Source: Escherichia phage vB_EcoA_4HA11. From it: a stretch of DNA of 64,000 bases. Below, piece after piece: positions 3,468 through 18,457 of the stretch. Under the pieces are notes generated by a model. That model was not told the DNA's origin. It saw nothing but the letters and a program-made list of their open reading frames with translations, and made no database searches. Each line of letters opens with the position of its first letter. Within the stretch, counting starts at the first letter, position 1. Both the position numbers and the translations under genes were made by a program. The stretch lies in the sequence record MN445184. The stretch is one strand, 5' to 3'.

Positions 3468-3535
3468 GTTATAGTCCTCTATTTGTAGGGGTTGGGTATG
3501 ATTTTAACATACCCGTTCAAATGGTTTAGAACAAA

Positions 3536-4000
3536 TTACAGATCTTGGCACTGATCGCAATATTCGTCGTATGTGAATGTCTCATCACACAGGCCGTCAC
3601 GCATCATATCGGCCTTGGCTTCGCCAAACATTTTCAGGGTGATAACGTTGCCGTCTAAATCTTTACGAAGTTCGTTCGGCTTGGTTTCTATGAAGTCGAA
3701 CACCACAAAGAACCCTTCGGTGACATATTTGATGGTTTTGTTGCTCAGCTTACGGATGCCACCATTCTTTTTGAAGATAGAGGTGCGGAGGTTTTCGAAT
3801 TCGGCCAGATTGTCATCGTGATTCTTGATGGCGTTCAGCATTGCGTCAAGGTCGATTTCAGGACGAAGCATTTTGACCTGATCTTCGCGGTCATAAGAAG
3901 TGAAAGATTCTATGTTGGTGATGCCCAGAGCGTTTTTAACAAACGCGTCAAATTTGGTGAAATTGTTGAATGCCCAGACGGAGATTTTTACGGTTGTCAT
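3536..4000 (-). CDS. hypothetical protein
   Basis: 154-aa ORF, ATG, SD AAGGAA; immediately downstream of the repeated sigma70-like promoter element. Confidence 0.6.
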   Translation of the reverse strand: MTTVKISVWAFNNFTKFDAFVKNALGITNIESFTSYDREDQVKMLRPEIDLDAMLNAIKNHDDNLAEFENLRTSIFKKNGGIRKLSNKTIKYVTEGFFVVFDFIETKPNELRKDLDGNVITLKMFGEAKADMMRDGLCDETFTYDEYCDQCQDL

Positions 4001-4040
4001 GATGTAGTTCCTTCATTTCAGAGTCAGTGTTGTGCTGCTT

Positions 4041-4105
4041 ATGGAATGAAGTATACGGGGTTTATTGAAGAAGTAAACCCCGTTTATTGAATAAATTTTA
4101 AATTT
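4041..4105 (-). promoter_or_regulatory. sigma70-like promoter (GTTTAC-N17-TATACT) with AT-rich upstream element; copy 1 of a repeated ~60-bp element
   Basis: Near-identical element at 51261-51330; both sit 5' of a minus-strand gene start; contains palindrome TTTATTGAATAAA. Confidence 0.45.
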
Positions 4106-4340
4106 ATTTGAAGCGATCAGGAAGAGTGTCGTGAACCTCAGCGCTCAGCACCAGGAACTTGCCGTCTTTAGTAGGGAAGCAGTAGTCTTTCTTGATGTGG
4201 CGCATGTGTTCAGCCGTAGCCGCTACACAGTCGTTAGTCACGTCGGTCTTCTCACCTACCCACATACTGGTTTTGGTATTCAATGTACCTTGGAAGATAG
4301 TGCCCGTCAATGGGCTTGCTCCAATCTTTTTGATTCTCAT
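4104..4340 (-). CDS. hypothetical protein
   Basis: Start reset to ATG at 4340 (MRIKK) with GGGAG SD and ATGA overlap with the upstream stop. Confidence 0.5.
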   Translation of the reverse strand: MRIKKIGASPLTGTIFQGTLNTKTSMWVGEKTDVTNDCVAATAEHMRHIKKDYCFPTKDGKFLVLSAEVHDTLPDRFK

Positions 4341-5220: not shown

Positions 5221-5868
5221 CTACATGAAATCTTTTACCCATTCAGGGTCTTCCATAGGAACCCAATTTTCGTATTTGAACATTTTGTACATGTTATAGA
5301 ACACTCGAATATTATTCCCGTCGTTCATCCGGTTACAAAATCGTTCATGCCCCCAACCTTCATTCTTCCATAATTGATAGAATTGGTCAGCCATAGCCCA
5401 AACGTGTTGGCATTTAGTTGCCCTTGGACGCTTCCATATCCTGATTTCATTCTGCCATTTGATCTGGGCTTGCCGTGATGTTTCCGAAAATCCAATTGGT
5501 TTGTTCTTTCCTCTTGTTACGTTAGACAAATGCGCCTTTGCTTCTTCGCTGAGTGGCCCAGTCCTTCCAAAATAAACGAGGGAACCATCTTTCTTAACAT
5601 GGAAACGATTTAAACAAAGAGGATTGGTGTGAACGGATTCGATCAATTGCGCTTCAACTTGGAGGGCTTCCTCTCCATCCCGACATAGCATTATCACTTC
5701 ATGGGTGAAGTAATCTGGTCCATGTTGTGATATAAGGGATTGGACAACTTTCGAGGACGTAAAATATTTTACCCAAAGTTCTTTGGGGTGACAGTTCTTT
5801 GCGTGACGACATCCATAATAGATGTGTCCATCTTTTGATTCTATTTTGTAAACGTATGGTTGGTTCAT
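5221..5868 (-). CDS. free-standing GIY-YIG homing endonuclease
   Basis: N-terminal YVYKIESKDGHIYYG...R GIY-YIG motif; sits beside the major capsid gene where T4 carries a seg-type endonuclease. Confidence 0.7.
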   Translation of the reverse strand: MNQPYVYKIESKDGHIYYGCRHAKNCHPKELWVKYFTSSKVVQSLISQHGPDYFTHEVIMLCRDGEEALQVEAQLIESVHTNPLCLNRFHVKKDGSLVYFGRTGPLSEEAKAHLSNVTRGKNKPIGFSETSRQAQIKWQNEIRIWKRPRATKCQHVWAMADQFYQLWKNEGWGHERFCNRMNDGNNIRVFYNMYKMFKYENWVPMEDPEWVKDFM

Positions 5869-5908
5869 AATTCCCCCTTTCAGGACATTATAACCCCATA
5901 CTTCTGAA

Positions 5909-5934
5909 ATAAAAACCCCGCCGAAGCGGGGTTT
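5909..5934 (-). terminator. intrinsic terminator after the major capsid gene
   Basis: CCCCGC-UUCG-GCGGGG stem-loop followed by U5 on the minus transcript. Confidence 0.65.
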
Positions 5935-17815: not shown

Positions 17816-18457
17816 TTATTCCCCGAAGTCGATCTTCATTTTATTGGGCGAAAGATCTTTCTCTATTTCGTCCGCAAATTGGTTATCCGTTTGCAGGCTG
17901 GCGTCTTTGTACACACCGTCTCCTTCCAGATCCTGCAATCGTTTATCAATATCGTCTATTTCAGATACACCTGTATCGAAATCTTCGTTACCGTATTGGA
18001 ACAACGTACATGGTAGGGAATATGTGTACCATTTCCCAAATTGCATGAATTCTTCATCGTTATTCGGGTTATTCACTTTAAATATTTTGTTAGCCATAGG
18101 CAGATATATCAAATCACCTTCTTGAGGCATTTGTTCAAGGCCTGGACCATTACCAATAACTTCTGAAAAACGACGACGAGCAATAGTGAATGTCACTTCA
18201 TCTTGTAATTGGATACCGCCGAACTTTTCCCACATCTGTGTGTTGAAGCCTTGATAATCCTGCATGTACACTTCGATGTCAAACGCTTGGTCGAATTTGT
18301 GTTCGGCCTCGTTTAAAATTGGGTATTTTTCAACAATAGAACGTGGAATATACTTGACATCAATCCCACGCAATTGTATCATCTCGACCACCAAGTCATC
18401 AATTAATTTTTGAGTCCCTTGGTGTGCAGTGTAATTGAAGTATCGAGAAGTAGCCAT
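17816..18457 (-). CDS. neck protein (gp14 position)
   Basis: Synteny only; ATG start; ACTAAATA box upstream. Confidence 0.4.
   Translation of the reverse strand: MATSRYFNYTAHQGTQKLIDDLVVEMIQLRGIDVKYIPRSIVEKYPILNEAEHKFDQAFDIEVYMQDYQGFNTQMWEKFGGIQLQDEVTFTIARRRFSEVIGNGPGLEQMPQEGDLIYLPMANKIFKVNNPNNDEEFMQFGKWYTYSLPCTLFQYGNEDFDTGVSEIDDIDKRLQDLEGDGVYKDASLQTDNQFADEIEKDLSPNKMKIDFGE

Follow-up and report, generated by a model that had tools for sequence, protein, structure and literature searches.

Two sites 47 kb apart in the genome of Escherichia phage vB_EcoA_4HA11, here called copies A and B, share an element of about 113 nt that runs from an AT-rich tract through a leader and a ribosome site, GAAGGAAnTACATCATG, to the ATG of a small gene. 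Each site is probably one copy of a PeSL-like early promoter, leader and ribosome-site cassette that is conserved in the Ackermannviridae. The element belongs to a family in the genome, is more conserved between genera than the adjacent coding sequence, and is followed by different genes in related phages.

The window analysed is a 64,000-nt stretch of sequence record MN445184. It belongs to the genus Kuttervirus (Ackermannviridae, Vi01-like myoviruses), and Salmonella phage S117 (MH370370) is 99.9% and 98.5% identical to it in two regions by megablast. Position 1 of the window corresponds to S117 position 94297, and whole-genome counts were made on the window joined to the remaining S117 genome (158 kb in total). 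Intergenic calls follow the S117 annotation; our own ORF caller over-extended two ORFs across cassettes, at copy B and at the orf56 copy. Copy A lies between orf140 and orf139 of S117, downstream of the major head gene, and copy B between orf184 and orf183, near the DNA polymerase gene. Both copies and all these genes are on the minus strand, as are all features of the two copies given below.

The initial annotation had described a repeated promoter element of about 60 bp at 4041-4105 and 51261-51330. The repeat is real but longer, the likeness continuing for about 113 nt through the leader and ribosome site. The two intervals are identical at 52 of 58 positions (89.7%) with an alignment score of 31, as compared with 6.5 ± 2.1 and a maximum of 18 for shuffled sequences. 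Exactly two sites in the window read GTTTAC-N17-TATACT, 4050-4078 and 51269-51297. The longer pattern GTTTACTTCTTCAATAA-N4-CGTATACTTC matches both sites with zero mismatches; no further window site has three or fewer, and 100 shuffles gave no match. The AT-rich upstream region and the position of both copies 5' of minus-strand ORFs (3536-4000 and 50662-51219) were also borne out, the 27-33 nt upstream of the -35 being 81% A+T in copy A and 91% in copy B. In the sigma-70 register both sites read TTTACT-N16-TATACT with 9 of 12 consensus matches, a score equaled by chance matches nearby in the same sigma-70 scan. The scan found no TGn extended -10 at either site; CG precedes TATACT. Repetition and conservation, rather than the consensus match, single out these two sites.

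The entire copy A cassette occupies 3998-4110, from the orf140 stop codon to the orf139 ATG, and is matched by an nhmmer model of the family with E = 5e-26. At its upstream end is an AT-rich, UP-element-like tract (4079-4103, 81% A+T) with the box TTCAATAAA at 4091-4083, which is kept in A and C orthologs. The -35 region (4072-4078), invariant in 15 distinct family sequences, can be read as GTTTAC (4078-4073) in the T4-early register or as TTTACT (4077-4072) in the sigma-70 register. In the spacer, the box TTCAATAA (4062-4069) lies within the invariant segment TTCTTCAATAA; no ortholog or paralog of A, B or C deviates from it, nor does Serratia phage Kevin. The -10 hexamer TATACT (4050-4055) is part of an invariant GTATA(C/A)TTC. 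From the usual spacing of about 7 nt, transcription is predicted to start near 4043-4042, giving a predicted 5' leader (4001-4042) with the Shine-Dalgarno sequence GAAGGA (4014-4009) and a conserved GGAACTACATC before the ATG (4000-3998). The leader and ribosome-site motifs are common to copies B, C and E, and the leader has no significant fold (z = -0.47). A stem-loop, ACGGGGTTTA-(9 nt)-TAAACCCCGT, spans 4055-4083 (arms 4083-4074 and 4064-4055), taking in the -35 and spacer and reaching one base into the -10. The gene behind copy A, orf139 (3536-4000, 154 aa), has a phrog_6516 match. It is followed at 3523-3535 by the junction sequence TTTGTTCTAAACC, a relic consisting of the last codons and stop of an alternative 93-aa gene.

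Copy B extends over 51217-51329 and ends at the orf183 ATG (nhmmer E = 3e-23). It begins inside the upstream gene, orf184 (stop at 51317-51315), the last codons of which make up its first 15 nt. The box TTGAATAAA (51306-51298) lies just upstream of the -35 region (51291-51297), which again can be read as GTTTAC (51297-51292) or TTTACT (51296-51291). The TTCAATAA box in the spacer is at 51281-51288 and the -10 hexamer TATACT at 51269-51274. Transcription is predicted to begin near 51261, and the predicted leader (51220-51261) contains GAAGGA at 51233-51228 before the ATG at 51219-51217. The leader shows no significant fold (z = -1.06), and folding of the promoter of copy B gave no stem-loop and no significant structure. 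The gene behind it, orf183 (50662-51219, 185 aa), has phrog_4823 as its only match.

A genome-wide motif search, which the initial annotation had proposed as a check, revealed that the two copies are part of a nine-member family. The pattern NTTTAC-N16-18-TAnnnT, with at least five of six positions agreeing in the -10, has 15 matches in the genome. By the S117 annotation nine of these are intergenic and co-oriented with the next gene, where intergenic DNA makes up 7.6% (binomial P of about 3e-7). Besides A and B, a third close copy (C, CTTTACTTCTTCAATAACCCACGTATAAT) is found upstream of orf90, and more diverged copies lie upstream of orf45, orf56, orf74, orf81, orf109 and orf114. The family layout consists of an AT-rich tract, the -35 TTTACT, a TATAMT-like -10 hexamer, a leader of about 40 nt and a ribosome site. 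In five of the nine a GC stem-loop adjoins or overlaps the -35, and TTTAC doubles as the T-tract of the hairpin; AAAGGGGCAAAAGCCCCTTTACTTC, upstream of orf90, is an example. A 16-nt invariant core is common to copies A, B and C (three of the nine). In 50 of 52 cassette instances the ATG lies at a fixed distance from TTTAC, 77 nt for A and B and 76 nt for C.

Conservation of the element extends well beyond the genus. A 113-nt copy A query found 282 phage records, typically at two to four places in each, and a copy B query found 285. Many Kuttervirus records contain all 113 nt of the copy A cassette without a difference. When the window is compared with Limestonevirus (Coodle) or Taipeivirus (PWKp5, IME250, KWBSE43-6), identity is 90-98% for the copy A element, as against 74-81% for orf140 and 48-61% at its third codon positions. 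Likewise, the copy B element is 95-99% identical to its Agtrevirus and Taipeivirus counterparts and orf184 79-88%; the copy B cassette as a whole is 94-100% identical across Kuttervirus, Agtrevirus and Taipeivirus. Overall, between genera, the element is 90-99% identical, the adjacent coding gene 74-88% and its third codon positions 48-73%. Part of this high identity could come from recent horizontal exchange rather than purifying selection.

The pattern of variation is not uniform along the element. Among 15 distinct sequences of types A, B and C two blocks are invariant, TTTACTTCTTCAATAA and GTATA(C/A)TTC, whereas differences occur in the 4-5 bases that separate them, in the AT-rich tract and midway along the leader. 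Even Serratia phage Kevin (Miltonvirus), whose upstream protein has only some 30% identity to orf184, preserves GTTTACTTCTTCAATAAAC. A scan of IMG/VR with the exact 16-mer TTTACTTCTTCAATAA returned mostly chance matches on unrelated AT-rich contigs, so a specific core pattern with 25 specified bases was used instead. In IMG/VR this pattern matches 42 times, exclusively on contigs of 152-162 kb, with a maximum of three matches on one contig. The same pattern has no match in 185,579 prokaryotic genomes, and a copied host promoter or a prophage origin was accordingly rejected.

What follows the cassette differs from phage to phage. Searching for loci with the orf139 protein gave only four near-identical loci, and the cross-genus comparison was made instead in a collection of annotated phages. 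The orf139 of the window (154 aa) is distantly related (28-39%) to ORFs of 105-145 aa in some relatives. An unrelated 93-aa ORF stands behind copy A in Kuttervirus heyday and in Dickeya phages, and an unrelated ORF of about 99 aa in IME250 and in an IMG/VR Kuttervirus contig, L098. The orf140 of heyday and that of L098 are 100% identical to that of the window; thus the content of the slot does not track its flanks. The next gene past the slot, orf138, is again conserved. The sequence TTTGTTCTAA follows the stop codons in the window and L098; in Coodle, heyday and L116 the same bases close the coding sequence of the 93-aa gene, which marks a replacement. At copy B, Menlow has a 74-aa ORF inserted directly after the cassette, before the orf183 homolog, and EspM4VN and one Kuttervirus have an orf183 with a different N-terminal third from the ATG on. 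Over the 52 cassette instances surveyed, the ORFs behind the A type fall into four unrelated families (10, 8, 3 and 1 instances); behind the B type there are at least two families and behind the C type at least four. Searches with orf139, orf183 and the alternative ORFs gave no Pfam, NCBIfam or PDB match, and in PHROGs families of unknown function or nothing. Judged by these comparisons the cassette marks a slot for ORF exchange between related phages, with recombination as the presumed mechanism of swapping. The leader and ribosome site as parts of the unit, and the slot itself, had been overlooked in the initial annotation.

A mechanism can be proposed from the layout. The AT-rich upstream tract would recruit the host sigma-70 RNA polymerase, by analogy through contact with the alpha-CTD. 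The polymerase would read the T4-early-type -35, (G/C)TTTACT, together with the -10 TATACT, which agrees with the consensus at five of six positions, and start about 7 nt downstream, near 4042 and 51261. Translation of whichever ORF lies behind would then be directed by a strong ribosome site (GAAGGA, about 8 nt, ATG) in an unstructured leader some 40 nt long. In most members a GC stem-loop right before the -35, with TTTAC as its T-tract, may end upstream transcripts, so that the cassette would both insulate and restart transcription. In copy A the stem-loop appears shifted, its 5' arm including the -35 and its 3' arm being formed by the end of the spacer. Because the cassette is near-identical between phages, it would also supply the homology for exchange of the downstream ORF.

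This promoter for the host polymerase, which the initial annotation had suggested for both copies, is the best available reading; the nine-copy family, the cross-genus footprint, the T4-early-like -35 and the annotation of a relative (below) all point to it as a predicted early promoter. The DNA of Vi01-like phages contains hypermodified thymidines, which may count against reading the element as a host-polymerase promoter. Two other classes of element were considered and rejected. The first is a structured RNA or riboswitch; the leaders have no significant fold, and Rfam gave only sub-threshold chance matches at copy A and none at copy B. The second is a late promoter. Structural genes carry ACTAAATA upstream instead, with 12 occurrences in the genome of which 11 are intergenic, and the cassette is thus not of the late class.

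The type of cassette is already known from T4-like phages, and the promoter reading from the annotation of one relative. Promoter early stem-loop cassettes, or PeSLs, were described in the phages RB49/phi1, PST/T4 and nt-1/KVP40 (Arbiol et al. 2010, PMC2839356; Comeau et al. 2014, PMC4122927). They are defined by an AT-rich tract, sigma-70-like boxes, a 3' Shine-Dalgarno sequence and start codon, an upstream stem-loop and an association with indels. Both copies described here resemble them in the AT-rich tract, in the -35 and -10 about 17 bp apart, and in the Shine-Dalgarno sequence and ATG at the 3' end. There are, in addition, several dispersed similar copies per genome (nine here), and the adjoining ORFans vary among closely related phages. 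TTTACT...TATACT of the cassette resembles TTTACW...TAYWAT, the PST/T4 consensus. The differences are as follows. The PeSL stem-loop precedes the promoter, whereas that of copy A overlaps the -35 and spacer, copy B has none, and five of nine in the family have one. The phage lineage is Ackermannviridae and not T4-like proper, and the spacer segment TTCTTCAATAA is invariant in the cassette. The slot is bounded on its 3' side by a different conserved intergenic sequence and not by a second cassette. The two copies are 47 kb apart with essential genes between them, which makes excision of a mini-circle between them implausible. Finally, PeSLs are also defined by demonstrated promoter and terminator activity and by recombination between copies (mini-circles), for which the cassette is a candidate by its sequence.

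In T4 early promoters GTTTAC occupies -36 to -31, and conservation is not confined to the hexamers (Hinton 2010, PMC2988021; Nolan et al. 2006, PMC1524935). The cassette shares with them the GTTTAC -35, a TATAAT-like -10, the A/T-rich upstream region and the additional conserved positions; it differs in having no TGn extended -10 and TATACT as the -10 itself. In Dickeya phage LIMEstone1 (HE600015; Adriaenssens et al. 2012, PMC3296691) five early promoters were predicted from the T4 consensus. One of these is the copy A ortholog, annotated "putative early promoter" (GTTTAC 94292-94297, TATACT 94269-94274, upstream of ORF133), with 98% identity to the window across its cassette. The annotation there is a match to the consensus and describes no family, conserved leader, overlapping hairpin or gene slot. 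An orf184-like sequence in LIMEstone1 opens a 186-aa ORF (ORF176) with no separate cassette annotated after it; copy B, therefore, apparently has no LIMEstone1 counterpart. In the papers searched, the family in Ackermannviridae, its conservation across genera including the leader, the stem-loop overlapping the promoter and the ORF slot appear to be undescribed. The same literature held no transcript 5'-end or expression data for Ackermannviridae phages and nothing relevant on TTCAATAA.

The alternative that survives best, possible though the odds are against it, adds a phage-encoded factor that binds TTCAATAA and also reads the promoter. It would activate a second class of sites and repress or retune the cassette promoters, forming a one-factor switch from early to middle transcription. 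The 11-nt spacer segment TTCTTCAATAA is invariant across paralogs and genera while the 4-5 bases beside the -10 vary; 11 invariant spacer bases exceed the needs of sigma-70 and hint at an additional reader of the sequence. A second instance of the 8-mer TTCAATAA stands shortly before the -35, in the form TTCAATAAA in copies A and C and TTGAATAAA in copy B. The 9-mer TTCAATAAA, which is TTCAATAA and the next A, occurs 22 times in the 158-kb genome, where a rough composition-based estimate gives about 2 by chance. When TTCAATAA with up to one mismatch is followed by a TATAAT-like hexamer, there is a sharp peak of 14 sites at a spacing of 12 as compared with 0-5 at other spacings, and the peak is reproduced in LIMEstone1. 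These TTCAATAA-N12-TATAAT sites, among them window positions 40929, 44119, 46498, 55218, 59852 and 62344, precede genes of the replication region: they are found behind the DNA polymerase gene, ahead of that for the sliding clamp and close to the ligase gene. They also occur in the tRNA region. Their geometry is that of T4 middle promoters, in which the MotA box is 12 ± 1 bp from the -10; TTCAATAA, on the other hand, is unrelated to the T4 sequence TGCTTtA.

Several points argue against the factor. ViI-like phages were reported to have no homologs of the T4 proteins for early and middle regulation, including MotA and AsiA (CBA120 paper, 2011). In copies A and B, TTCAATAA is 6 bp from the -10, not 12 ± 1, and a -35 is present; the activating geometry is thus absent from the cassette promoters. 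T4 early promoters likewise have extra consensus positions with no dedicated factor, and repression by the factor is purely inferred. The specific form in which TTCAATAA is the box of a non-MotA factor, making middle promoters at 12 bp and shutting off the early cassettes from the spacer and upstream tract, is rather improbable. If true, the cassette would be the early half of a one-factor early-to-middle switch. Each of the three promoter classes, early, middle and late (ACTAAATA), would then have a concrete consensus in this family, for which the 2011 CBA120 paper could identify none by informatics, early promoters included.

It is unlikely that the cassette is instead a promoter of a middle or delayed class, read by a phage-modified polymerase and not by the unmodified host enzyme right after infection. 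The extra conserved bases, the moderate sigma-70 score and the location of copy A within an otherwise structural (late) gene block would fit such a promoter. Against it, the hexamers are of T4-early type and spacing and the downstream genes are small ORFans, typical of early genes. Moreover, late genes use ACTAAATA, and a separate candidate middle class is present.

The early promoter cassette also offers an explanation for the inverted repeat of copy A. The initial annotation had noted 8-bp arms across the -35 of this copy that copy B lacks, and suggested extra control of copy A. The repeat is indeed there, with no significant fold at the corresponding place in copy B, but its arms are 10 bp. 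With the 9-nt loop it folds at -14 kcal/mol (z = -4.65; none of 200 shuffles folds as well). It could in principle be a DNA operator for a dimeric repressor, since its 10-bp arms match perfectly, lie across the -35 and spacer, and do not vary among all the A orthologs of three genera. That reading is very doubtful. At the same place the paralogs have ordinary GC hairpins with T-tracts whose stem sequences are unrelated; hence it is a hairpin that is conserved, not a binding sequence. Compared with copy C, the paralog at orf90, copy A misses exactly 10 nt, which takes out the loop and the 3' arm, and the remaining GGGG pairs with CCCC at the end of the spacer, rebuilding the stem. On this alignment copy A looks like a cassette in which 10 nt were deleted and the stem was re-formed with the spacer. 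The arms are GC-rich with a 9-nt gap, and in the KWBSE43-6 record the same hairpin is annotated as a terminator by ARNOLD. Against a terminator stand the 9-nt loop and a poor U-tract tail, AUACUUCAUU, and our terminator scan did not call it. The arms show no variation, so covariation cannot separate a DNA from an RNA reading.

Given the GC hairpins of the paralogs, the 10-nt deletion and the KWBSE43-6 annotation, the repeat is better read as a terminator or insulator than as an operator, and it is most likely the stem-loop of the cassette in a shifted register. Transcripts begun at this promoter would not contain it, so the hairpin would form only in RNA reading through from upstream. Extra control of copy A, in the form given in the initial annotation, is not supported.

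A reading without promoter function, in which the repeat results from duplication or gene conversion or serves as a target for recombination or homing, is highly improbable: leader as well as promoter are common to the copies, Taipeivirus A-copies bear the leader variant of copy C and gene exchange does take place at the cassette, but the copies are intergenic (9 of 15 against 7.6%), always co-oriented with the next gene and at a fixed distance from its ATG, the positions that never change coincide with the -35 and -10 and variation falls between the TTCAATAA box and the -10, the core persists in a genus whose flanking proteins are only about 30% identical, and neither copy in the window adjoins an endonuclease gene.

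Vi01-like phages are widely isolated and are used against Salmonella, E. coli O157, Klebsiella and Dickeya, and their early transcription signals are essentially uncharacterized. The early promoter cassette offers predicted, testable start sites for this transcription. Since ORFs are naturally swapped at a fixed distance from the promoter, it could serve in the engineering of these phages as a ready platform for expression and a safe place to insert genes. It also points to the small ORFans that are the likeliest candidates for a role in host takeover or counter-defense. The idea of the PeSL, regulatory cassettes as joints for gene shuffling, is extended beyond the T4-like phages proper.

A minor observation concerns the second class of sites. 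In several of the TTCAATAA-N12 sites the -10 falls within the loop of a terminator-like hairpin, and in LIMEstone1 one such site is annotated both as a terminator and as a promoter.

The genome holds a second promoter-like class, TTCAATAA-N12-TATAAT, whose box is an 8-mer also found inside the spacer of the repeated cassette (a putative early promoter with its leader and ribosome site). Genome-wide, 14 sites have a spacing of 12 between TTCAATAA and TATAAT, compared with 0-5 sites at other spacings, and the same spacing peak is seen in the Dickeya phage LIMEstone1. The position of the box has the geometry of the T4 MotA box and does not match that of a sigma-70 -35 element. On the (+) strand of the window the boxes start at 40929, 42311, 44119, 46498, 55218, 59852 and 62344, with a further (+) site at 18329 that probably lies in a coding region. 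Some follow the DNA polymerase gene, others fall within the tRNA region or precede small genes of the replication region. The tRNA cluster (Met-CAT, Asn-GTT and Ser-GCT) occupies 44027-45348 (+), and one of the sites starts 17 nt past tRNA-Met.

Several members of this class (55218-55260, 59852-59900 and 62344-62390, all (+)) carry their -10 hexamer inside a GC hairpin loop, with a T-run behind the hairpin, an arrangement in which terminator and promoter overlap. GGGGGAtataatTCCCCC and GGGGAATGGGTtattattaGCCCGTTCCCCTTTCTTTTT are examples of this arrangement. The LIMEstone1 ortholog of the site at 62344 is annotated both as a terminator and as a promoter -10. Another terminator-then-restart junction is found at 5867-5934 (-), where the strong terminator AAACCCCGCttcgGCGGGGTTT and its T-run stand directly 3' of the major head gene. 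Both GGGGTTATAATG and the following gene's ribosome site come no more than 30 nt later.

The 2011 CBA120 paper stated that the late sequence had not been identified for this phage family. ACTAAATA was found 5' of most structural genes checked, including those for the scaffold, sheath, neck, tail spikes and a 1612-aa protein; the tail tube and portal genes have ACTAATTA in its place. The genome has 12 copies of ACTAAATA, 11 of which lie between genes, and within the window its low coordinates are 8232, 9450, 14231, 18482, 19254, 25769, 30995, 33205 and 36816, all (-). ACTAAATA is probably a late-promoter consensus of the family; the T4 sequence for comparison is TATAAATA.

The intergenic stretch after the slot gene, the exchangeable ORF behind cassette copy A, spans 3468-3535 (-) and is kept across genera whichever gene stands before it. 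Its conserved sequence is TTTGAACGGGGTATGTTAAccgCATACCCtatCCCCTACAAATAGAGGACT..ATG. It contains a hairpin of 7-8 bp without a T-run, and TTTGTTCTAA, a relic of the alternative 93-aa gene.

The genes upstream of cassette copies A and B both end in ...TTCAAA... (..RFK* at 4104-4115 and ..EFKIY* at 51315-51329, both (-)), so the 5' edge of the repeat extends into the last codons of unrelated genes. The same FKIY* ending is found on the orf184 homolog of Serratia phage Kevin. In the cassette 5' of orf45 in Salmonella phage S117 (30926-30970 (-); locus L003, outside the window), the 16-mer CTTTACTTCAATAAAA is tandemly duplicated directly behind a terminator hairpin, a pattern suggestive of slippage or recombination in the -35/box region. 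The leader variant GCAGTACGACACCAAC is present in Taipeivirus A-type cassettes (L010, L013 and L074) and in the third S117 cassette, copy C (63405-63460), whereas S117 copy A carries a different variant. The sharing of the copy C leader by Taipeivirus A-copies suggests gene conversion between cassette copies.
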